A stretch of DNA of 64,000 nucleotides, taken from Massalongia carnosa. Taxonomy: Eukaryota. The translations under genes were made by a program, and so were the position numbers. The DNA is taken from positions 2,232,001-2,296,000 of the forward strand of contig OZ287071.1 in NCBI GenBank assembly GCA_965645245.1. Direction: 5' to 3'. Under the pieces are notes generated by a model. It saw nothing but the letters and a program-made list of their open reading frames with translations. It ran no database searches and was not told the origin of the DNA. Positions 13,585 through 62,252 of this stretch are shown here, in pieces; position 1 is the first letter of the stretch, and each line of letters begins with the position of its first letter.

Positions 13585-14832
13585 TCACATCACAACGCAC
13601 ACTCCCCGCGACTCCTCCTCGGCCTCCCTCCTGCGCAGTTCCGCCTTCGTCTTGTCTAGCTCGAACTGCTGCGCCTGCAACGCGGTGTTGTGGGCATGAT
13701 CGGCCTTCAGCCTGGCAAGCTCATGCTCATGGCGCAGCATGCGCTCGCGAGCCTCCAGCGCCTGCGCCTGCGCCTGCTCCCGCTCGCGCGCCAGCTCCTC
13801 GTCCTTTTCCCGCCGCAGGGCTTCCCAGTTCGCCTGCATCTGGATGCGCTCCTCCTCCTGCTTGGCCAGGCGGGCCTCGGTCTCGGCCTTTTCGCGCGCG
13901 ACGTCTTTCTGCCACTCGCGGTCGCGCGCGTCTAGCGCCTCGTCCATGTCAGCTTTCAGCTGCTGGAGCTGCTGTTCGAAGCGCGCCTTTTGCTCCGCCA
14001 TCTCCGCCGTGACTTCTTTGCCCGCGAGCGTTTGGTCCAGCGCGATGCCGTCGTCGACCATTTCCTTGGCTAGCTGGGGGATGATCGGTCGCTCCTTCTT
14101 GATCAGATACCACACGATCTCCATGGCGGATTCGATGGCGCGGTCGTGCCGGAACACGGTGCTGCCCTTGGCGATCATGCCGGCCCAGAAGCGTGGATGG
14201 GTGGTGAGTTCCTGCTCGCGCTTCAGCGCCGTGGCCTCGTCGACTCCGCTCCACATGGTGGTGGCGAGCACCACGCTCTCGAGCCCATCCTCGCCACATA
14301 GCTTCTTAAACATGCGGAGGTTCTTCATAGCCGATCCGCCCACGCGGACGTCGAGGATTCGGTGCAGATAGACAATGCCGGTCAGTTGAATTTTGTGCTC
14401 GTATGCTTCCGCGAGCCAGTTGGCGACTTCGCGGAGGATGTCGGTGTCAGATTTATAGGTATCGTCGAACCCGGGCGTATCGATTAGGAAGAGTCGACGC
14501 CCGGTTTTTAAGCTGCATTGGTGGATGCCAACGGTGCTGGTGCCTGCCTACTGGTTAGCGGATGCAGTTCCCATTATTTTATGAATAGGTCATCCTACAT
14601 GCTTCGAGATCGTGACCTATAACCACGGGCTCATCGGTGAAGAGAGAAATGAAGCTACTTTTTCCAACCCCTGTCACCCCCATGACTGCGATGATAACAT
14701 CAGTTGGTCTGGGAATTGATTTATGTTAGCAGCTTGCACAGTTCAATCTCGAACAAAAGTTACATGAGATGGCCTGGGAGTCTTGCCTGAAGTCAAACCT
14801 ATGGCCAAGTGTCGCTCCACTTTCCCTGGCAT
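13585..14832 (-). CDS. P-loop GTPase A (AIG1/GIMAP/MMR_HSR1-like G domain) + coiled coil + CAAX box
   Basis: Exons 14832-14799 (tentative first exon, GTTTGA donor), 14708-14599, 14543-13585. G1 IAVMGVTGVGKS, G2 EAC|TST, G3 LIDTPGFDDT, YLHRILDVR, LATTMW. E/Q/R/A-rich coiled coil; ends GVCVVM*. Confidence 0.88.
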
Positions 14833-15810: not shown

Positions 15811-17534
15811 ATGAAATACTATGAACAAAATCCCTACTCCTTGGCGGGTCAAGTTTATCCTGGCAGCTGGCCAGAGCAGGTGGTTTTTTCTGATTCCATA
15901 TGTACCAAGACAGAGCATGTCACACGCGACGAGCTGCAAGATATAAAAACGCCCTTGCGAGTGGTGAATGAAGTTATTCCCGGTAGTTGGCCAGAAGAAG
16001 AAGGGTTCTCAAGTTCCGTATATAGCGAAACATTTGAATTCATATACAAAGAGCAGCCATGTAAACATATACCGCACATAAAGGTGTATGGAATCTGTCC
16101 TGGAAGCTGGCCAGATGACGATGAGTTGCCGCAAGTGCCAAATTCCAAGGTGGACCACGCTCAACTTCCCGATCCAGGCCGAGAAGTTGTCATCGCTGTC
16201 ATGGGTGTTACTGGAGCCGGCAAAAGCAGTTTCATTCGGTCCATGACAGGCTGCGAAGACGTTTTTGTGGGCCATGGGTTATCTTCAGGTTGGTGTGTCG
16301 CTAACTACCTACCACTTTCGTCTATTTTAACGGTTTCAATTCCAATTTAGCAACCACAGAGGTTGAATCATTCAAATTTACACATCGCGGCATTAATTTC
16401 GTGCTCGTTGACACCCCTGGTTTCGATGATAGCACCAGGAACGATGAAATCATCGTCACCCGTATCCTCGACTGGCTAGCATCCTCATTTCGGGACGGCG
16501 TCAGACTGACCGGACTGATCTATCTTCATCGCATAATCGACCCGCGAATCCGTGGCACAGCGTATGAGAACCTGCGCATGTTCAGAAAACTCTGTGGTCC
16601 GGACTCTATGCCTAACATAATCCTCGGCACCACCTTCTGGAATAATATTGGAGCGGAGAAAGGAGCTAATCGGGAGAAAGAACTGTGCGAGAAGAATGAG
16701 TTCTGGGGGGAGATGGTCAAGAAAGGATCACGAGTTGTGCGCATCGGGAACGACCGCGAGGCAGGGTTGAAACTTCTGCATGAAATCGCCCAAAGGGACC
16801 CGTTCGTTCTAGCTGCGCAGAGAGAAATGATGGAGGAAAAGAAGTCAGCCGCTGAAATGGCGGCCAACAAGGCCGCCAACAAAGAAATAGAGCAGATGAA
16901 GCGGGAAATGGAAGCCAAAGCGGAAGCGCAACGCGAAGAAAATGCGCGCGAACTCACCCGTCGGGAAGCCTCCAGGAAGGAGGAGCTCCGTCTCGAAATA
17001 TCAAGGCAAAGGGAGGTTGCACACGCCAAAGCCCTCGCCGAGGCGGAACGGTTGGCAAGAGAACAGCGGGAATATTGGCAAGCCTATTACGCACGGCAGG
17101 AGTTGGCGCGACAAGAACAGGAAAAGGAGAAAGCACGCCTGCGAGAGGAGGAAGCACGGATAGAGCGTAAGAGAAAGGCAGAGGTGGAGCGGATGGAACG
17201 TCTGGATCGGGAGGCGAAAGAGGCCCGTCTGCGGTATATTCGTAGCTACACTTGCGTCCGGCAACCTCTTTCTAGTCGGTATTGCGACAAATGCAAGGTC
17301 CGTCTGAAAGGCTCCTATACTTATTATCGTGAGTTTCTAATTTTCTGGCTCGATACGGAAGCCGGCGTATCTGATGCATATAATAAGATCAAGCTAACCT
17401 GTTGCAAGAGAACAGATTGTTGCCATTGCCACAACGATAACTACGACCACTGCGTTGGATGTGGTCGTGATTGCGGACATCCAGAACATCCGCTAATGTC
17501 AATGCTGGAGGAAAGCGAGTGTTTGGTCATGTAA
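15811..17534 (+). CDS. P-loop GTPase B (AIG1/GIMAP-like) with N-terminal PGSWP repeats, coiled coil, ZZ-like zinc finger and CAAX box
   Basis: Exons 15811-16288, 16351-17328, 17416-17534. G1 IAVMGVTGAGKS, G3 LVDTPGFDDS, YLHRIIDPR, LGTTFW. Spliced C-terminus YCDKCKVRLKGSYTYYHCCHCHNDNYDHCVGCGRDCGHPEH; ends ECLVM*. Confidence 0.88.
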
Positions 17535-19425: not shown

Positions 19426-20177
19426 CTTGGCTAGGGTGTCACTTGATTTCAACGAGATGAGACCCAAACTGCGAGGATTTCCTCTGATTTTGCATGAAAT
19501 GGGCTACTCTGAATGAACACATCTTCCGAGCAATAAGATAAGGCTTTGATATGCATATCCGAGAAACGCGACCGAAGAAGCATGCAAGCTTGCATGAGCA
19601 GTCACATCGAACGCCATCTCGCTCAACGCCATTCTTCTTAGCTTCGTGGTGGGGCAGCTTTGGCTCTGCGGCTTCATTTCGCAAGGCTGCTGCGATCTTG
19701 AGCAAAGGGCGAAGGATTCCGGCAGCCTTGTTATTAGCTAAAGCCAGCCTGATGCGAGAATGACGAGGCTGACAGCAAGGTATCATTAAGGTGTCGTACC
19801 AGGGGTAAGTTTTGCAAGGCTGTAAACCATTTGCAGGCATGCCATCTTCGTGCCCAATGCTGCTTGTTGCAGGTTGAACCGATTCTTTCTGAAAGCAACT
19901 TAACTACTCGGCTCCTCGAAAGAATAAAACATAAAAACAGAAGTGTTCCTATCGGGAGTTTATGACTAGCAGAATATTCACTGTACAGAGTAGACATGGT
20001 TTTGTCAATACATCATGCTTACTTGCTTTGGTTAGCAAGTAATCGAAGCATTTGATAACCCCTTTTTTTCATAAAGAAGCAAGAGATGAAAGGCCACTGG
20101 TAGCAATTCCATTTTCTTTCTCTGGGAAGATAAGGTTCCCTAAGCTTTTCATATATATTATCCCTCTTGAACCCCCA

Positions 20178-40305: not shown

Positions 40306-41642
40306 CAGTACTAGGCCAAAAGTCTGCGGCCCCGCACCCCACCAACATTTCAATCATTCTATTCAATCAACAATCAACCACGTCACGATTGCTGAAATGT
40401 CTTGAAACTTTACATAATGATTACATACATACTAAACAAGAATTCTCCCAAAAATTGATTTTTAATATTTAGTATACCATCCTTCCGACGCTATACACGC
40501 TTTTATCCCCTATTCATGCTCTCTATTAACCTCCTCATCATTTTCACATCTATCAACGTCCAGGCTTCTTCTAACGCTTTCCAAAGTACCTCACGAACAG
40601 TTTCATCACTGCCGATCACCAAATCTATGTTCGGGTTGACTTGATAGACGAGCTTTTTTGAGCACATACCAAACGTGCTCGATGGGATTTAAATCAGGTG
40701 AATAGGGGGGCCAATCGATGACCTCTATGCCGTTCTCATTGAACCATTCCATCACCTTTTTAGCCTTATGTATAGGTGCGTTATCCTGCATGAAAATGAG
40801 GCCCGGTTGCCAAATTCCAAGCAGATTATCGTTCAATAATTCCAGATATGAGTTCGCCGAGTACCCCATCTTCTTCGCAGCAAAATCACGAGCCAATTTG
40901 TAAAGATCTGACCTGTCATCTCCCCAAAAAGCTGCCCAGACCATGACACTGACTCCTTTGCCTTTGGGGACAGGTTGTATCATCTCTTTATTCCATTTTT
41001 CTTTCGGCAATCTGAACACCCACTGACGCTGTTTTCCTGACCCCTTTTCCACCGAGCACTCATCTGACCATATAACTCTTGACCACTGCTCAAAAGTCCA
41101 CTCACGCCGCAGCAAGCACCAATCCAATCGTTTCTTGGCCACCTCAGGCGTCAATAAAGGTCGTTTTTTAGCCACCCAGTTGGTTAAACCATACAGTTTG
41201 AGTGCCCGATAAATGGTCGTACGACTGCAGCGGAGCCCCACTTCTAGTTTGATTTGTGCATAAGTGATTCGTGGATTGATTCGTGCATGCTTGATGATAT
41301 AACGTCGATCGCGTTCTGACAGCACTTCAGGCCGTCCAGAACGTGATTTAGACACGCCGTCGTTGCGAATTGAGTGCTTCTGAATGGTGCTCTGCACGGT
41401 CGATTTAGTGAAATTAAGAGTCTTCCCAATCTCGGTCGGTGTGTGCCCCAACGCCTGGGCCCCAACAATCATACCACGTTGATATGGCGTCAATTCAGTG
41501 TTACGAGGCCGATTACCACTTATGGGGGTCAAAGAAGCACGAAGCATGGTGAAATGATGAGGTGGAAGATGGGGGTTGATGAGTTGAAAACGCGAAATCA
41601 CGAAAATTACGGGTTGGGCCGCAGACTTTTGGCATGGGACTG
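40306..41642 (-). mobile_element. Tc1/mariner-superfamily DNA transposon (Tc1-like, DD34E), 1337 bp
   Basis: 27-bp TIRs: CAGTACTAGGCCAAAAGTCTGCGGCCC (40306-40332) vs reverse complement CAGTCCCATGCCAAAAGTCTGCGGCCC (41616-41642), 24/27 identical. TA duplications at 40304-40305 and 41643-41644. Confidence 0.95.
40462..41547 (-). pseudogene. Tc1-like transposase, frameshifted near the C-terminus
   Basis: HTH region with SGRP, KKRPLL, WSDE, QDNA, WPPYSPDLNPIE (34 residues between D and E). An apparent +1 A in a run at 40654-40659 and a -1 near 40507-40510 interrupt the canonical tail KKLVYQ...LEEAW...IESM..IKACIASEGWYTKY* (stop 40462-40464). Confidence 0.8.
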
Positions 41643-44600
41643 TAACATCTCCCAAAACATAAGATGATATGTAAAGTGCCCGCATCCGTCCTCCGGCTTC
41701 CCACTCTCCCCATGTGTATATATATCTCTCTCTACCTCCGTTAACCAGACCATCATCCTTAAACCACCCCTCAAGCTTTCCTCTCCAAGATCGATCTACT
41801 AGAAGCGGCGCTGCTCTCTCATGACCGGTTACTTAGTCCTAGCCCGCGGGCGAAAGGGGGCTTTTGGAAGAGGAAAGGGGGAAGTAGCGGTAGGTGCGGG
41901 TGCGTACTTGGTTTATTTTTTATGGAGTTAAGGCGGCTTGTTTCATGGGATAGATCCTGGCTGGAGTGAGCGGGAAGGAGCGAGGAGGGGGGGGGGGGGG
42001 GGCGAGGAATCTTCAGGCACTTTTTCTCCCTCCCCTTTCCCCGTTGGTTCTAGGAAGACTGGTCCGGTTTTGTTCGTGGAATTTTTAAAGAACTACTGCT
42101 GCTGAGAGAGCCAGGGTGTTGCGCCGGATATATTCGTAGCATCTCGTTGAGAGAGCCAGGGTTTAGCAGGTGAAGGGTGGGGTGGTGAGGCGGTGAATGT
42201 GAAAGTTTGCTGCTCTTCGTGAATTTTTGGGATGCACTACTTGTTCCCTGGATGTTTTCTATCTTCCTAGATGCCGGCATCCGTGTCTATACCAACCACT
42301 CCCCTCCCCTTTCTTTCATTCTTTCTCCTCTTATCAACCGGCACATCCCATCTCATCCATCTCTTCTTCCTTTCTCTCCTACTCACGGCTGAATTCGATC
42401 CAAATCAATATTCTTAAGACATGTATACCCGTCCATCTTCTAGTTTCTTATTGTTCTCTTTGCTCTGTCGATATAACTCTACTGCACAATACTCTCAAGG
42501 GGTGGGAAAATCCTCGTGATCTGCATTACGCCAGAGCTTACTTTCTTTATCTATCGTCAGGACCATAAACTAAGTATGTATAAATCTTAACCTGTTGGCG
42601 CCTTTCCAACCACTTTTGTTCGTCTATAGCAATCGGGCCAACAAAGAAGTAAGTTGTTACGGTCGGAATCGATAGGATTTCTTATATATTAACGTGAATA
42701 ATAGTTCCAAGTAGTTATTTGCCACCGCTAGCTTCGTGCAAGAAGAGCCAAGGGCCTCTCCATAGAGAAATTTGTTGGAGGTCCTTCGAAGCGAGAAGTA
42801 AAGTCCGTATCATAAGCATCTACCGTCTCTGGCGATAGTACTCGCACTTAACCAGTAACATTACCTTGATTTTGCAAGGTGCACTCCATAGGGTCCTTTC
42901 TCATCTTCACCCGCAGAACTCCGCAATAAAGAAGCATATCTAACGTAGGTTTAGAATTATAGAAAAGATCTGAAAAACATCGTCGTCAACTTGAGTGCGT
43001 CCATTTCGAGAGGGAGTGGGATCCCGAAGAGGCTTGACGATATGATCGAACAACAGCAATCTATACCCTTTCGTGCAAGCCATGCATACGGAGCCTGTTG
43101 GCCTTGTCCCTTGCTTCCCTCCTCTGTCTAACTTTCTTTTTTTCCTCCTATTGGTCCTATAATCTCTACGCCTGCTCCTCTGCAGGCTCTCCGCAAGAGA
43201 AGACAGCGACAGAAGATGGTTGAGAAATATTTCGTGCTTCTTCCAGAGGGAAAGCGCCTTCACCGCCACCCGAAAATTACTGAAGGTTGCTCATAAGTCT
43301 GGTTGATATGGTATTTAGGGAGTAAAAACATGCTCAGTCTTTTCTCCACCGCGTCTCCCGCAAATCAACCTTGCTTATAGATATTAATCTCCTGGTATTT
43401 GCCATCAAGCTATACGCCGAGAGAAATGTATGCCATTTAGATAAGAAATCTAGGGCTGGAGGGTGGATCCAGCTCAGCTAGCTCGGCTCCTGGTTGCAAG
43501 AGTCTCACGGAGATCTCTCTTTATATCCCGCGCTTCGAATACATGAACGCTAGTTAATGTGGATGGTACGAGTCCAGTGGGTAGAAGTGCATGTCCAAGT
43601 CCTACCAAGTCACTCCATCATCCTGCCTCCATTGGAAACTTGATCATGAATAGAGCTATACCTGCAAGACACTGGGGGTCTCTGCTCGCCTTGCGAAACG
43701 GGAGTCATCTAGTCACGCTAGGCCGAAGTAATAGTTAGACGTTCATTTTCAACTTAGTTATGTCGCAATACTCAGTGACTTCTACGTACAAAAATCCACA
43801 GCAGCATCTTATATAGAAACAGAAACAAATTTTTACAACTGACTAGATGATTTTGTTGCCCCTTTGATTAGCACTTGTAATAGCACTGCCTCAAGAATGC
43901 AGAGACTGGATGAAACTAGGTTTACAGTCTCTTTATTTTGGATCTGCAGAATAAACCTATCCGATTTTGGTTCAGAATGCCCCGGCAATTAAGATAATAG
44001 AGGAGGGACTGGATCCGATTTTGGTACAGGAATCAAGAAATGGTATTTTCGCTCCTTGAGTCCCCCCTGACGAACTTGTACGTAATCAACAATATTCTGT
44101 ACTTTGGCAGAACACCCACATTGAGTTTCAACTCATCGGAAAGAAGGCTCAATATTGATGACAAGATCAGATAGTGACAAGACTAACCTCATGTGAAAGC
44201 GAGTGAAAAAAGATTCGAAATTCTATAGCGCTATAGGGAAGCGAAAAAAGGTTAGGAGTCATTACACTTCCTGAAGGTTTCTCGAAAAGGGTTGGGTAAC
44301 AGATGGAGGTGCAGATGGGAGCGTGAGATCGATAGTATAGCTGTCAGAGACAGAGTAGTAAGGATGCTGAAAATACTCAAGGGGCTACGAAATTGATGAA
44401 GGTAATGACAATGCACGAAAATGTAGGTACCTAGTAGACGATAACTGGTTGAAAATGACGCTTTAACCGTGAGAATGCAGCTTACCATTTACAAAAAAGG
44501 GATAAATTGAGCAATGTCGGGCAGCTCCAATTATTTTGCGAATGAAATGATGGTATACATAGTCCCAAGAAAAGCATGAATCGGATTGCGGAAGATGGGA

Positions 44601-54865: not shown

Positions 54866-56436
54866 ATGGCCCGTAACGAGCGTTATAGCCATGAATCCCC
54901 TCATGGCCGTACAGATGCCCCCTTACCGCCTCTCCCTCCCTCAGAGTTTGACCGCCCGACGGAATATCAGAGCTCGATATCGCCCATTACATCTCCTATT
55001 GACGAACCCAGCTATCGGACTTATGGGCGGCGGAGCCAGCAAAGCATCGCATCAAATCATGAATACTATGGAGACCGTGATCACGAACCAAATCCCTTCT
55101 CGGACGATATTCCGCTTCGAAATCACTCACAAATGGAATATGATGGCGCATATGGGCAGGAGCAGCCGCGATATGAGCCTCGTGGATTCAGTAATTCGTT
55201 ACCCCCAAGAACGCAATCAACTCGGAGTCGCGGGAAGAAGGGACTTTTCAGCAGCAGGGTCCCTTGGGTGACATATGCCTTTACTCTGATCCAATCAATC
55301 GTCTTCTTGGTCGAGCTCATCAAGAACGGTAAGTCAACCTTTCTGCGGTGGAATGTTTACTAACAATATCAGGCGTCCTTACCAAAACTCCCGTGGAAAT
55401 CCATCCTCAATTTAATCCCATGATCGGTCCCTCTCCCTATGTCCTTATCAATATGGGTGCTCGCTACGTCCCTTGCATGCGCGCGACGCCTGAGATTCAA
55501 GATAAGGCGATAAATTGGCCCTGCCCTAACTCAACCTCCTCTGACCCCTCAAGCCCTGATTACAGCTGTACCCTCTCCCAGCTCTGTGGCTTTTCAGACC
55601 ACCACACCGTCAGTGAACATCCAAACCAGTGGTTTCGCTTCATCATTCCCATGTTCCTACACGCTGGATTCATCCACATTGCATTCAACATGCTCATCCA
55701 GCTCACTCTAGGCCGGGACATGGAAAAGGATATTGGCCCTTTTCGGTTTGCTCTCGTCTATTTGAGTAGCGGCATTTTCGGCTTCGTCCTTGGAGGCAAC
55801 TTTGCGCCAGGCGGGATCTCCTCCACAGGAGCATCAGGCTGCCTTTTCGGCATCATCGCCCTTGTCCTTCTCGATCTTCTCTACCACTGGAGGAATCACG
55901 TTTCTCCATGGGCCGACCTTGCCTGGATCGTTCTTACCATTGCCGTTTCCTTCGTTCTTGGTCTTCTGCCAGGTCTTGACAATTTCTCCCATATTGGCGG
56001 GTTCCTCATGGGACTTGTCTTGGGGATTTGTCTGCTGCATTCTCCAGACATACTCCGTAAGCGCGTTGGGCACGATACACCACCTTACACCCCCGTATCG
56101 TCGAGAGCGCAAAAGCCTGGAGACGCAAGCAGCGCGGCGATCAAAGGGTTCATGAAGCAGTCTGTAGGCTTCTTCAAAGGACGCAAACCGTTATGGTGGC
56201 TCTGGTGGCTTGTAAGAGCAGGGGCGCTGATAGGCGTCATTGTTTCGTTCATCGTGCTTCTGAAGAATTTTTACAAGGAGAATCCAACGAAGTGTTCTTG
56301 GTGTAAGCATTTGAGTTGTATCAACATACACAATTGGTGCGACATTGGAAACCTCACTTTCACCAACACGACTAAATCATCAAAACGAGATCTTCTTGGG
56401 ATTACAGGGCCGGTGGATCTCGGCCCTTGGCTCTAG
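54866..56436 (+). CDS. Rhomboid-family intramembrane serine protease
   Basis: Exons 54866-55328 and 55373-56436. NPMIGPS, QWFRFIIPMFLHAGFIHIAFN, catalytic GASG and DNFSHIGG. Confidence 0.92.
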
Positions 56437-56716: not shown

Positions 56717-56787
56717 ATCTATCTGATTTTATCTATCTGATTTTATCTATCTGATTTTATCTTATCTGATTTTATCTATCTGATTTT
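56717..56787. repeat. 14-bp minisatellite (ATCTATCTGATTTT) x5
   Basis: Five head-to-tail copies, the fourth with one extra T. Confidence 0.92.
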
Positions 56788-58439
56788 AAAATCCACTCTT
56801 TGGAGCTCTAGGCAAGGATTTATAAATTTGAATGCCTTGGACCGCTTCTCGCAGTTTTGAGAACCCAAATATTTTTGTAGATGGTTGAATTTAGGTTTCT
56901 AGTTCTAGGGGATCCCGGCATGGGCAATGCAGAAATTCGTTGGGCTGAGGTCTCAGTCAAGGATATTTCGCCCCCTACTCTATCGTACTTATAGTGAGCC
57001 TTCAAAGTTGAAACGGGGAGGAAAAAAAGCGTGACCACATATCAGCAATCACTGTACCCCATGGACGACGATGATTATTTCTACGTATAAAGTGTCTTAC
57101 AGATATACGGATGACGAATGCGGGATGTCACAATGGTGGAATTCACATTCGGAGCACATGTTTCAGGAACCACGGCGAGAAGGTGGCTTGTGGAGGAACT
57201 CGGCTCAAGGGAACAATTCTAGAAAGGGAGGTAAAAAGGGGTATGTGGCGCTAGGCTTTGTACGGTTAGTTCGCTCCCTCATTCGACCTCAACTATATTT
57301 TTTTGCTGGACATGTTTTCTGTAATGGCGACGAGGTTTTGCATGGGCGGGGGGTTGGTTTTGAGCATTGGCATTAAATATGTTGCCGAGGTTTATACGCC
57401 ATGGAAGGGTTGAAGTGTTGGATGTCCTGGAGGTGGATGAGAGATATGTATGTTGCCATGTGATATTTTTCTTGTATCAACTGTCTTGCCTCTTGCTCTA
57501 CTTCCTGCGCCATGAGAAACGGGGTGGATAGAATAATGTCTTTTCATCATAGCTTGCTCTTTTCGGCGTTTCTATGATGTGAAGAAGAGACTGTGACATT
57601 GGTAGACCTGGCGGCGATATCTGAAATACCCAGCAGAAAGCTGAGTCATTTAGCTCTCCAGTCATCTTGAGGTTGGTGATTCTTAGTTGCTAAAGCATTA
57701 AACTGTCTCTCCCTTTTCGTTTATCTGGGGTTTGAGATTTTCCAACGGGCCATCTATACTTCCATTGGAGATGATAACTGCTGCTATGCAATATGCCTCA
57801 AATGAATTATTTACCGCAAACCTTTACAGCGTCTCGAGTCAGATTAAAATCTACGATTCACCAACGCGACTAGTCCTATCACGTATTTTTCTTTTCCCCC
57901 TCACGTTTCTCAACCGGTTGGCTTCATCTGAGCTAAATCATTAGCACTTCAGGTGAAGTGTTACTAGAATACACCGTCATCGATTTCGGAACCCCACTTT
58001 CACATCATCAACATCCAAATCCCAACTTGTCCAGGTATTTCTTTGATCCTCACTCCAAAGAACAAGCAAAAATACTAAGCATAGACCAAAGCCCAGTCTT
58101 CAACCTCGGGGAAGAATACTAAACCCTACGACGATCAAGCCCAACGCAAGAACAACCATCATCATCATTTGCAGTCTCGCTACAGCTTCATTGTCCGCGT
58201 CGTTGATAAGAACTCGACCCCTGCGCCTGAAATGGAGTCTTTTTCTCCCCACCCACAATCTATACTTCCAAATCAAGCCTTAAAATCAAATGGTAAGCCT
58301 TCCAGGATTCTTACAAACCTCACCCAGTCTCACTTCTCCCACTCTCGTCTCTCAATCCAGACTCAACTCTCTATCATCTCATCAGCACAACTAAGAAATC
58401 ACCGCAGAATCTACTTCAGTTCCTACCCAAGAACCAAAC

Positions 58440-58620
58440 ATGTCTCCAATCACGTCCACCGCTGTAGTCGCTGAGGCTCTCACCGGCCCGAACGAGCACC
58501 GTGGTATGTCATCTCCTACCAAAAATCCTCTCTCATAGATCCCATCTATCAAGTGAACGGCCGCTAACTCTCCTTTCCCCCACTATAGGCTCCCCCGGCA
58601 GCGGCTGCACCATCATGTAA
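58440..58620 (+). CDS. Small CAAX-terminated peptide, candidate a-factor-like pheromone precursor
   Basis: Exon 58440-58503, intron 58504-58588 (GTATGT...GCTAAC...TAG), exon 58589-58620. Gives MSPITSTAVVAEALTGPNEHRGSPGSGCTIM* (31 aa). Confidence 0.72.
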
Positions 58621-59593
58621 ACCCTTCTTGCGCCGCCCAAAAAAGCCCTCTCCAGGAACCCCTAGCACTCTGCTCACAAGGCCCCGTCGTTCCCGGCCTT
58701 TACAGCTAGCCTGCTTTAATATTCAAGGAAGGATTCTCAAACATCGGACACGCATTGGCATATTTTACACCAACTTTTCTTTTTTTTCTTAAAACCCCCA
58801 GTTTTACCCAACCCAACATATTCATTCCCCCCCCCAAAAGTCCCAACACCCAGCGAGGCCTCTAATCGGCTTTTCTATCTTCAGCCACCACCAGAAGAAC
58901 CAAAGCATCGATAAGAAAAAAATATGGCCTCACCACCCCAGCACATAATTTCCATTCTCAACCCCCCGCCCCCGCATCTCTAAGCCCGGCCTTCTGATCT
59001 CTCTCTCCCTTGTCCACCACCTCTTTACCTTCTCCCCATTCTTTCCATCTGGTTAATCAATCAATCAATAACTTATTCAACCCCCCCTACCGTCACGAAC
59101 AATTACTCAGTCCATCTACATAACCCTGGCACTCTCGATGTTCCGGGGGCAGGATAGTGCGAGGGGATGGATGGATACATGAATAAGCTGAACGAGGGTG
59201 ACCAGAGCAAGGGATAGGTAAACTAATCAGCTCATAGCCACGCGGGGGGCGGGAAGGCATTTCAATTATTTTCCTCTCCTCCTTCGTTCTTTCTCTCCAA
59301 CTCCACGAGAAAGCCCAGTAGAGGAAGAGGGGTCAAGGTCTAGCCACTTATTTAGTTTTATCATTCATTTACAATTCATTTCCACCCCTCTTCGACCGGT
59401 TTTTCTTCCAAACCTGCGCGTACAACCCCTCCCTTAACCCAACCCCTATAATCCCTCAGCCGAAACCATGTATCTATCTCTATTGCAAATTTTTACTCCC
59501 AGACACTCATTTTTAGTTTTGTGAGCCAACCTACCTACCTCCCTTTCCTAATTTTCCGTTCCCACGTGTTTTGCCCATATCCGTTTGTAGTAG

Positions 59594-59606
59594 TGATGAT
59601 GACGAC

Positions 59607-59643
<37 letters not shown>

Positions 59644-59649
59644 GTGATG
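59594..59649. repeat. (GAT)n trinucleotide microsatellite
   Basis: Long gatgatgat run with two gac and one ggt interruptions. Confidence 0.9.
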
Positions 59650-60267
59650 CTAGTAGGGTTCTATCGCTGCGTCCCCAAAAAAGACAAATACATACATACA
59701 TTACTTAAAGAGGTCCGGTAAAGCAGGGCACATTATCGGTGTGTGTGTGTGTGTTTTTGGTGGGGAAAAGGGGGGGTGGGGGGTTGGTTTAGTGGTGGTA
59801 GACGAGATTTAGGAGGAGATGGGATTTTTATTATTATATGTCCCTGCATATTTAGTCGATGGGTAAATAGATATACCTAGTAGATTAGGTAAAAGGGATA
59901 TGCAGGACGGGAGGGATAGGACAGACGGAATGATCTGGAGAAAAATAAAATAAACGCAAAGTTTAGAAGGGGCGCGCTGGAAACGCGGTGGGAGGTTGCG
60001 GGAAGGTTGGGATAGGATAGGATAGAGGAATAGGACAGGTATCGTATCATGAACAGATTAAAGAAGTCGTTGCCTTTTTACTTTTTCGTTCGCTTGATAA
60101 ACCCCCCCGGCCGGTGGTACATGAGAAACGGATTTCTGGTGATATCGTGACTGGTCGTGGGGTGATGGATAGATCCCCGCACGAATAAAACCTACACCAG
60201 TCAGTTCCTTGTCAGATTATTCTCAACTCCATTAACAACTGTTAACTGAAAAAAAAAAGTTTTCAAA

Positions 60268-62252
60268 TCAGCCGCAAGTTTTTAAAACCCCCTTTTCCCG
60301 CATCAACGCCTCCACTCTGTCAATCGTCCCGATCAGCAATCCCACGCCCTCAACACCCATTCCTCCCCCCTCGGTCTCGCCCACCGCCTCGCCCTCGGCC
60401 ATCTCTCGCAACGGCTGCAGGAAGTTCTCGGCGAGGCCGTATGTGCGCGACACGACGTCGATGGCGAGCGTGCGGAACAGTGAGGGCGAGGAGACGATGA
60501 GATAGTAGAGGTTCAGGGCCGCGAGATGGAAGGAGCGATTCGCGAGGAAGGCGGCCGGATCGAGGTCTGAGGGAGAGGAGGAGTTGAGGAAGCGTGGGTC
60601 GCCGAAGAGCATGGGGGATAGTTCGGCGATGGTGGATGGGGATGCGAAGAGGGGGTCAGAAGGAGGAGCCGCTTTTGCGTTGCTCTCGGCTGTGAGGAAT
60701 TCCTGTTTTAGCCAGCCGACGGCGCTCGCTTTGAGGTTTTCATAGGGGCAGTAGAGAAGGGTGTCGCGGATGAATGCCAGACGGACGATGTCGGAGGGGT
60801 GGGAATGAAGGAGTGAGGATGCTAGAACATGGGCATGATAGCGAAGGATGGGCGAAGGGGTATTGGCGGAAAGGAGAGACAGCCTCTGCATGGCAATATT
60901 GAACTCCTCGTCGTCCAAGGGCGGGATTAGATGGGGGTTTTTGCTTTGGATGAAGAATCCTAGAAAGAGAATTGCGTCGATGAATGAATCGTTTTCGGTG
61001 CCAATAGCTTTGACCAGAATGGGGCTGAGGAAGTTGGCAAGTATGGTTGCGTAGTCAGGGAAAATTTTCAACGGGAGCTGGGGTGTAGGGACGTCAAACA
61101 GAGATGACGCTGCCATTATTGCACAGAAGAGATAGAGCGATCCTGGTTGGGATAATTGGACGTCGGATGCTGAAGACGGGAGGTGGTCTTCTCCTTCATG
61201 GAAATCTGGCTCTGGGCCGGTGATACTCATGAAGAGTTCTTTTGGGCTAATTTTCAAGTCACGCGAGAGCGCCTGGAGAGTTAGTCGCTGAATGACAGCC
61301 TCTGATGTGAACTTACCACTATATGGCCCACGATCGCATCACTCTCTTGTAGTTCTTCCTCCTCCGTAAAGCGTTGGCTGTAAGACCGTCGCCCAGGAAT
61401 GATTTTCTCGGGGTGCAATCGTTCTTGAAACCTACTACACCAAGCCTGCCCTGGAATATCGTCTGTCGACGGCTTGAATACGTAAACCTCGATCGCATAG
61501 GTCAACAGCGACTGAAGAAGTCGATTCTGCAGCATCACCTCATTGGGTCCTAGATCGTCACCTTGACCTTCTGGGTCGGGAGCAATCTGAACGTTCACTT
61601 GTAAAGGAATCACAGAGCTACTTTTCCGGGGCGGTAGCTTAGGTCTTGCAGCGCCGGATAGAGTCTTGATGAAACTTAGAATTGCCTCCGTTGCTGCGGG
61701 GTCTGCTGCTATAAGGGAGTAGACTGGCAAGATGGCTTGTAAGGAAGTTGAGAGAAAGCGGCTGGGGTATTTGGTTCGGATACGGGGATGTAGCACTGCA
61801 AGCATCTCGAGCAGAGCGATAAACTGCATTTTCTTGGACGGAGGGCCCGTTGGGCTTTGGATCTCAGAACTCCTGATAATGCCTCTGCCATTCTGCTCCA
61901 CATTGGCCTGATCTCCCTCCACCACCCTTGACCCGTCTGTGTCCTCTTCATCGCTGTCAACACCCACATCGGCACGTCTCCCCAAGGCCTCCAGCAACTC
62001 CGTAACTTTCAAGACTACTTCTCTTGGATTCCCCAAGCGTGCCACATCCTGAAGGCATTCCCGCGACGCCGGCAACAGCGGAAGGAGCAGATGAACCAAA
62101 TCCCAGCCAATATTCGCAGTCAACGTCGTATCCTGCAGAATGTCATGAAGGGTGGGGAGCTGATCTAATGTCAAATGGTATTCGAGGAGTGTAAGGTAGG
62201 TAAGATAGTCGGTCTTGGGGGGAAGAGCGTTGAGGAGGGAGTTTTCCGCCAT
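60268..62252 (-). CDS. YAP1-binding/ALF4/glomulin family protein (YBP1-like)
   Basis: LPPKTDYLTYLTLLEY, IGWDLV, VARLGNPREVVLK, RIRTKYPSRFLSTSL, CPYENLKASAVGWLK. Exons 62252-61317 and 61272-60268. Confidence 0.83.

Follow-up and report, generated by a model that had tools for sequence, protein, structure and literature searches.

A candidate a-factor-type pheromone precursor gene with a conserved intron in the lichen-forming fungus Massalongia carnosa

The stretch of DNA analyzed here, referred to below as the window, comprises 64,000 nucleotides (nt) of the lichen-forming Lecanoromycete Massalongia carnosa (assembly GCA_965645245.1, contig OZ287071.1, positions 2,232,001 to 2,296,000 of the forward strand); coordinates given without a locus name are window positions. 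A gap of 3831 nt separates a rhomboid gene (+ strand, ending at 56436) from a gene of the Ybp2/YAP-binding family (− strand, ending at 60268). A preliminary description of the window had called this gap about 3.8 kb without a convincing long open reading frame (ORF), and had placed in it a spliced micro-gene for a CAAX peptide, proposed as the precursor of an a-factor-type mating pheromone. The gap is indeed free of long frames, its longest stop-to-stop frame measuring 129 amino acids (aa), and the micro-gene is found again in related loci. We consider it probable, at roughly 0.72, that this two-exon gene encodes a 31-aa precursor of an a-factor-type (MFA-1/PPG2-type) lipopeptide mating pheromone.

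A two-exon micro-gene ending in a CAAX box

The predicted gene consists of three parts.

58440..58503, + strand: exon 1, 64 nt from the ATG, with 21 codons and base 1 of a Gly codon
58504..58588, + strand: phase-1 intron, 85 nt, with a GTATGT donor, a pyrimidine tract and a TATAG acceptor
58589..58620, + strand: exon 2, 32 nt including the TAA, with the rest of the Gly codon followed by S-P-G-S-G and C-T-I-M

The ATG at 58440 lies within the context CCAAACATG, and a branch sequence, GCTAAC, occupies 58563-58568, 21 nt 5′ of the acceptor. When the two exons were joined by script, a 31-aa peptide with the C-terminus CTIM-stop was obtained, identical to the product of the preliminary description, whose ATG, exons and intron signals were likewise reproduced exactly from the window sequence. 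Exon 1 encodes a pro-region rich in Ser, Thr, Pro and Ala, with His-Arg as its last residues. An in-frame TAA is present 48 nt 5′ of the ATG. No ATG precedes the CAAX box in the exon-2 frame, so that an ATG-initiated CAAX peptide requires the intron. In a hydropathy calculation alone, with no signal-peptide predictor involved, the highest nine-residue Kyte-Doolittle mean was 1.44, and there was no hydrophobic core.

The four sequencing runs that cover the stretch are DNA contigs, with no splice joint at this intron or at any neighbouring one, and are silent on expression. In one of them, run X4, cover is low over 58214-58815.

The same micro-gene in four further lineages

The rhomboid was aligned with 22 database relatives, and the alignment was used to fetch metagenome-contig DNA with 10-kb flanks. 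Of the 363 confirmed stretches fetched, the 80 best were retained as loci (together about 0.99 Mb, many of them short contigs). A blastn search of these 80 loci with the whole 3831-nt gap gave two matches only, in L025 and L027, both spanning 58587-58639 (exon 2 and the following 19 nt) at 81% identity. The loci were also scanned with peptide patterns and the intron model, and the matched places were read. The same micro-gene was found no more than 10 kb from the rhomboid in 10 of the 80 loci, representing four lineages besides the window.

L024, L029: carriers of the micro-gene, one lineage
L025, L027, L026, L028: carriers of the micro-gene, one lineage, with only exon 2 in L028, at a contig end
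L031, L033: carriers of the micro-gene, one lineage
L035, L036: carriers of the micro-gene, one lineage

The window and these four lineages provide eight distinct full-length sequences of 31-42 aa (31 in the window, 33-42 in the relatives), all with one CAAX box per precursor. The start is MSP or MPS in a CAAA(A/C)ATG context in each of the nine loci with both exons. Exon 1 of the relatives, 64-97 nt long, is rich in Ser, Thr, Pro and Ala and closes with (Asp/Glu/His...)-x-Arg. In all five lineages the intron, of 54-96 nt, follows base 1 of an invariant Gly codon (Arg|Gly). The last exon encodes Gly-x-x-Gly-(Tyr/Phe/Ser)-(Gly/Ser)-Cys-(Thr/Cys)-(Ile/Val)-Met-stop; it measures 32 nt in every lineage but L031/L033, where it carries an additional Gly and measures 35 nt. 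A farnesyl-type CAAX box abuts the stop throughout, as CTIM in the window and as CCIM, CCVM or CTVM in the four other lineages, so that X is Met and the a2 residue is aliphatic in all five.

The preliminary description had pointed to the rhomboid/Ybp2 region of related genomes as the place where a syntenic short CAAX ORF might lie, and one is present there, with the same intron position and with an exon 2 of equal length in four of the five lineages. Its placement varies: in the window the micro-gene lies 2 kb downstream of the rhomboid, on the same strand and before the Ybp2 gene; in L024-L033 it lies about 6-6.5 kb upstream of the rhomboid, on the same strand; and in L035/L036 it lies past the Ybp2 gene, on the opposite strand. 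Judged by the rhomboid, the nearest named proteins are those of Teloschistes and Sticta for L024-L029 and those of Pleopsidium and Peltula for L035 and L036. Eurotiomycete- and Dothideomycete-like loci among the 80 have no micro-gene in their flanks.

A different frame with a CAAX-like end was seen in three loci of one lineage (L007, L009 and L011; − strand, about 19745-19801). This 69-aa spliced frame ends in CLLM and resembles a segment of some larger protein more than a pheromone.

Likeness to known lipopeptide pheromones

According to Wilson et al. (2023; PMC10569646), Sordariomycete a-factor precursors have 21-24 aa, start with MPST, contain VPQT and end in Gly-Tyr-Cys-Val-Val-Met, and the Gibberella zeae precursor ends in Cys-Thr-Val-Met. 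The lichen-type family resembles these precursors, namely MFA-1 of Neurospora crassa, MFM of Podospora and PPG2 of Sordaria and Fusarium graminearum, in having a single short precursor with a Ser/Thr/Pro-rich N-terminus. The sequences of L035/L036 begin with MPST (the others with MSP), carry LPQT and end in Gly-Tyr-Gly-Cys-Thr-Val-Met; those of L024/L029 have VPQT and end in Gly-Tyr-Ser-Cys-Cys-Val-Met, an end shared by L031/L033, where the inner motif is VPQQ. Hence (V/L)PQT and Gly-Tyr before Cys recur in the relatives, and the CAAX boxes end in V/I-Met, as CTIM, CTVM, CCVM and CCIM here and as CVVM or CTVM in Sordariomycetes. Four anchors in the same order within about 30 residues constitute good, if unscored, evidence of common descent with the MFA-1/PPG2 type.

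On the other hand, the lichen-type pro-region is longer (31-42 versus 21-24 aa for the whole precursor), Arg-Gly is invariant, and one extra residue stands between the aromatic residue and Cys. The phase-1 intron of the lichen-type family lies ten or eleven codons before the stop.

The putative a-factor of Leotiomycetes (the family of Botrytis cinerea BCIN_13g03330) is similarly an unannotated short CAAX gene found by conservation and not by homology. It shares with the lichen-type family a Ser/Thr-rich N-terminus, and its tails are mostly CTVM (also CTIL and CSIM), preceded at a short distance by GY or GF. At 45-64 aa and rich in Cys, the Leotiomycete peptides have a fixed ...C-x-E-C-D-G-Y-E-C-C-C-I-P-I-P-C-T-V-M end (PMC10569646), and their core, CDG(Y/F/V)xCCCIPIPC-x-V-M, is absent from all eight lichen-type sequences. 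The lichen-type family looks closer to the Sordariomycete than to the Leotiomycete type. Repeat-type precursors, as found in Huntiella, Verticillium and Trichoderma, are composed of units of ~8-10 residues with an Arg/Lys-Gly/Asn start and a Gly-Cys-x-V/I-Met end (PMC10569646). The Arg|Gly...Gly-Cys-x-I-Met end of the lichen-type peptide is like such a repeat-type ('h-type') unit, that of Huntiella included, but one CAAX unit is present in this gene, compared with two to five in tandem in the repeat-type precursors.

In Saccharomyces cerevisiae, MFA1 and MFA2 encode short precursors that undergo farnesylation, removal of AAX, carboxyl methylation and N-terminal trimming before export by Ste6 and recognition by the Ste3 receptor. 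The lichen-type peptide has no sequence likeness to this a-factor past the CAAX box, and a corresponding pathway is assumed for it. Aspergillus fumigatus reportedly secretes an a-factor-like pheromone, ppgB, said to have been described by Krappmann and colleagues in Curr Biol in 2025 and known to us from citations. Likened by citation alone, ppgB too would be a gene of a long-missing kind from a class other than Sordariomycetes (Eurotiomycetes). The preliminary description noted that such genes have been hard to find outside yeasts and Sordariomycetes; with the A. fumigatus pheromone of 2025 and the putative Leotiomycete family of 2023 (PMC10569646), the class now reaches beyond these groups.

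All of the conservation evidence speaks for a translated CAAX peptide only and is silent on mating. It would equally suit a conserved prenylated micro-peptide that is not a mating pheromone and serves, for example, vegetative hyphal communication, thallus development or signalling between lichen partners. The MPST, PQT and GY-C-x-V-M likeness is, however, specifically to mating pheromones. Moreover, our literature search turned up no other ascomycete family of 20-45-aa CAAX peptides, and we know of none. Such a role in place of one in mating is considered unlikely.

Start codon, leader and upstream element

Two further features were assigned 5′ of the gene.

58055..58091, + strand: upstream element containing CCAAAG, AACAAG, AATACTAAG (58071-58079) and CCAAAG; probable promoter element with cores like those of HMG-box (high-mobility-group) sites
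58293..58407, + strand (alternative acceptor end 58419): tentative 5′-leader intron with a GTAAGC donor, an ACTAAG branch and a CCGCAG acceptor

A rival reading is that the two exons are the end of a longer protein, or of a precursor with missed upstream exons. In all seven non-window sequences, the 300 nt 5′ of the start codon contain no ATG in any frame, and an in-frame stop lies 126-252 nt upstream of the start. The lack of ATGs is explained in part by the G-poor composition of the leaders, which in the relatives have 5-10% G. In L024, L025, L026, L031, L035 and L036, a GTAAG(C/A) donor together with a branch and an acceptor falls 21-195 nt 5′ of the ATG and makes a plausible leader intron, its donor being at 101-195 nt; that of the window was read by eye, and a regular-expression scan of the window leader found none. 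Should the window's leader intron be used, and should transcription start upstream of 58232, an ATG at 58232 would tentatively come into frame and the precursor would have 58-62 aa. This would favor an extended product. Unless that intron is used, the in-frame TAA shortly before the ATG at 58440 closes the frame in the window as well, and a product so extended, at fewer than 100 aa, would remain a CAAX precursor. The ATG-free leaders and in-frame upstream stops of all seven relatives give no support to the exons being the tail of a much longer protein, the alternative that the preliminary description had itself raised, and we regard it as quite improbable.

The 9-mer AATACTAAG was found at −342 to −545 from the ATG in all five lineages. 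It occurs 19 times in about 1.05 Mb, both strands counted; 16 of the 19 copies are in micro-gene loci or the window, and 11 of these 16 lie a few hundred bases 5′ of the gene, on its own strand. A paired form, in which ACAATAYYAA(G/C/T) has a near-copy no more than 45 nt further on, was counted nine times in the same 1.05 Mb (both strands). All nine pairs stand 5′ of the micro-gene, in those nine loci whose upstream region is complete, and ACAAAG usually comes after the pair. These counts indicate a conserved upstream element specific to the micro-gene, which probably acts as a promoter element.

The upstream cores resemble the HMG-box site A(A/T)CAA(A/T)G. In Podospora, both pheromone genes are controlled via A(A/T)CAA(A/T)G cores by PaHMG5, an HMG factor, together with the mating-type factors (PMC3730723). 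Only three of the five lineages have a strict core on the sense strand, so that a link to HMG regulators is something we infer.

Two other candidates in the upstream regions were set aside. Ste12-type TGAAACA sites number at most one per lineage, lie far upstream and are unconserved. A single ACAATACCAAG in L002, L004, L006, L009 and L011 was followed up in L002, where there is no micro-gene. Separately, a TATA-like box followed by CTTCC (CATAAATAC..CTTCC or CATATAAGACTTCC) was noticed in three lineages at a distance of about 195-285 nt 5′ of the ATG, at about 3650-3670 in L031, about 19590-19610 (− strand) in L035 and about 2930-2945 in L025; the window has only TCTATACTTCC, at about 58257-58267.

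Pattern of constraint and expectation by chance

Exon 2 aligns gap-free between lineages, at 72-84% identity. In exon 1, the intron and the 300-nt flanks, identity is about 55-60% and gaps are many. In the DNA alignment of the eight sequences, the invariant columns are concentrated in exon 2, at the donor and acceptor and at the Arg codon. Within exon 2, Gly, Cys, Met and the position of the stop are invariant; the differences include synonymous changes (TCC/TCT and CCC/CCA) and a swap of TAA for TAG at the fixed stop. Two pairs of loci show the same: the introns of the close pair L035 and L036 (96 and 66 nt) are 30 gapped positions apart and their exons a single base, and L025 and L026 differ by four residues in the pro-region and by none in the peptide of the last exon. 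A conserved C-terminal part joined to a freer N-terminal pro-region is thus seen across the five lineages. This pattern is that of a translated gene with a constrained C-terminal part, and it speaks against a chance ORF as well as against a purely non-coding element. The introns call for two caveats. The donor of L031/L033, GTTCGC, is weak, and in L031/L033 and L036 the intron is open and a multiple of three in length, so that an unspliced message would there end in CAAX too.

The conserved stretch is short, about 50 nt including 19 nt past the stop, as might be expected of a regulatory or RNA element in which the ORF is incidental. Such an element would not readily account for the invariant positions of Cys, Met and stop, for changes that are synonymous or conservative, for a TAA/TAG swap in place, for an exon 2 without indels, or for an intron phase that is kept while intron length and sequence vary; in addition, an Rfam search of the gap with E up to 0.1 found no family. 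We give a non-coding origin of the conservation very little credence.

The 19 nt 3′ of the stop (AACC..CT.CTTGC.GCCGCCC) are common to the window (58620-58640) and to L025 (3402-3420) and L027, and are not obviously kept in L024, L031 and L035. They may be an element of the 3′ untranslated region (UTR) or a chance likeness.

On structure alone the gene is not compelling. In its six frames the window contains 134 Cxxx-stop sites, five of them farnesyl-type. Under a strict intron rule, 48 pairs were intron-like and the spliced micro-ORFs of 18-60 aa numbered 21, among which this micro-gene alone has a Cxxx end. The number of chance cases is estimated at 21 × about 0.033 × 5/134, that is about 0.03 per 64-kb window, which exceeds the likelihood that a window holds a real gene. 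Scaled to a genome of tens of Mb, the same estimate gives of the order of ten or more chance cases compared with one or two real genes, and consequently low odds of a real gene before any comparison. Conservation in relatives places the micro-gene far beyond chance. With about 0.03 such structures expected per window, a chance ORF was a fair starting assumption, but it is effectively refuted by the same architecture near the same neighbour gene in four further lineages. We are close to certain that this is a real, conserved and translated CAAX micro-gene.

The window has two other farnesyl-type ends, CVVM at 13599 (− strand) and CLVM at 17520 (+ strand). They close long frames (13585-14547, − strand, and 16305-17534, + strand) in which a Pfam search at E up to 1e-5 found no domain, and may be the C-termini of ordinary prenylated proteins.

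Neighbourhood of the gene in the window

The identity of the neighbours as a rhomboid protease and a Ybp2-family protein was confirmed by Pfam. The best named relative of the rhomboid is a protein of Sticta canariensis (82% identity), and most of the other named matches are from lichen-forming Lecanoromycetes. Judged by this one gene, the window most likely derives from a Peltigerales-like lichen fungus. An exact look-up of the stop-to-stop frames of the two neighbours gave no match, such frames being an uninformative query.

The micro-gene region is flanked on one side by a 14-nt tandem repeat in five copies (56717-56788) and on the other by a TGA/GAT microsatellite of ~19 copies (59594-59649). 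Apart from these two simple repeats, the gap yielded no further feature. The assemblies of all four sequencing runs break at 59583-59790. From about 57,900 to 59,560 the + strand is strongly C-rich and G-poor, with a GC skew of −0.218 for 58001-60000 and only 11% G in the interval +200 to +700 after the ATG; in the four other lineages the G-poor bias stops soon after the stop codon (22-30% G). The C-rich tract of the window may correspond to an extended 3′ UTR, or else to low-complexity sequence particular to its lineage. Elsewhere in the window, an ORF at 40606-41832 (− strand) encodes the Tc1/mariner-type transposase domains HTH_Tnp_Tc3_2 and DDE_3, and L013 contains a stretch 36% identical to it.

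Weighing the pheromone reading

As far as sequence comparison goes, the candidate a-factor-type precursor first suggested in the preliminary description is supported by a conserved CAAX gene and by the MPST, PQT and GY-x-C-x-V-M motifs that relatives share with Sordariomycete precursors. Several points weigh against it. The gene model and its splicing are predicted from DNA alone, and, with no matching database protein for the unspliced frames searched, the micro-gene is unannotated and its role in mating a prediction. The likeness to published a-factors was judged by eye on short motifs, with no scored alignment. The window copy is the least typical: it has Ser for Tyr/Phe before Gly/Ser-Cys, lacks the PQT motif, and shares with the Sordariomycete precursors only composition and the CAAX box. 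Two ATGs occur in its leader (−208 and −150), the upstream element is present once and in weaker form, and the sense strand has no strict HMG core between −650 and −250. Among the 80 loci, 70 have no micro-gene in the available flanks, and these include L002-L011, which have the closest rhomboid of all the loci (73-74%); in L002-L011, synteny with the window breaks directly after the rhomboid. Finally, the 47-aa unspliced frame at 58395-58535 had no match in the protein database, where the query was this unspliced frame and the spliced peptide was not searched, and the 55-aa open unspliced frame of L036 had none either.

A further query, the 52-aa open frame of L031, was compared with 1.84 billion representatives and gave one match, to six stretches of a 443-aa protein. 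This match was rejected, as it falls on the intron-encoded part and is read as low complexity.

Proposed maturation and action

Met as the X residue of a CAAX box is a signal for farnesyltransferase. By analogy with CAAX and a-factor biology, the Cys of the lichen-type peptide would be farnesylated, the last three residues would be removed by a Ste24- or Rce1-type protease, and the new C-terminus would be methylated by a Ste14-type enzyme. The N-terminal pro-region might be cut off at or next to the invariant Arg, which is a guess. The mature product would then be roughly (R)G-S-P-G-S-G-Cys(farnesyl)-OMe, would leave the cell via a Ste6-type ABC exporter, and would act on a Ste3/PRE-1-type receptor of the opposite mating type. 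The upstream ACAAT/ACAAAG-type sites could serve as the handle for HMG-box mating regulators, either MAT1-2-1 or a factor of the Ste11/PaHMG5 type.

The preliminary description had suggested, beside a shorter form, a longer mature peptide by cleavage after Asn; for the latter we find no support. The invariant Arg-Gly at the exon junction, together with the likeness to repeat-type units, points to a shorter form and suggests that the mature peptide may begin at or just after the invariant Arg.

Implications for lichen-forming fungi

Wilson et al. (2023; PMC10569646) state that no a-factor gene had been known in filamentous ascomycetes outside Sordariomycetes before their work. Our literature search found no paper on a lipopeptide pheromone gene of lichen-forming fungi, although such a paper may exist. 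The gene described here is the first candidate that we could find for Lecanoromycetes, complete with a gene model and a searchable signature, for a class of gene that was itself already known. We lean somewhat toward the view that an MFA-1-type gene is ancient in filamentous ascomycetes and has remained recognizable in Lecanoromycetes by MPST/MSP, PQT and Gly-aromatic-x-Cys-x-V/I-Met, having gained there a fixed Arg|Gly intron and a dedicated ACAAT/ACAAAG element.

Genes for a-factor-type pheromones are routinely missed by annotation. If the proposal is true, a structural search for the start, a phase-1 intron after Arg-Gly, a last exon of about 32 nt, CxxM-stop and the upstream element could recover a-factor genes across lichen fungi, and the signature would perhaps be useful in further classes in which searches by homology have been unsuccessful. 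More boldly, the peptide might have an additional part in thallus or symbiosis signalling. The sexual biology of lichen fungi is hard to study because most of them cannot be mated in culture. A conserved candidate offers a concrete peptide for synthesis and receptor assay and, if the proposal is true, receptor assays in yeast would make it possible to test mate recognition in lichen fungi that cannot be cultured. The candidate gene would likewise be a marker for which lichen fungi keep a working mating system.

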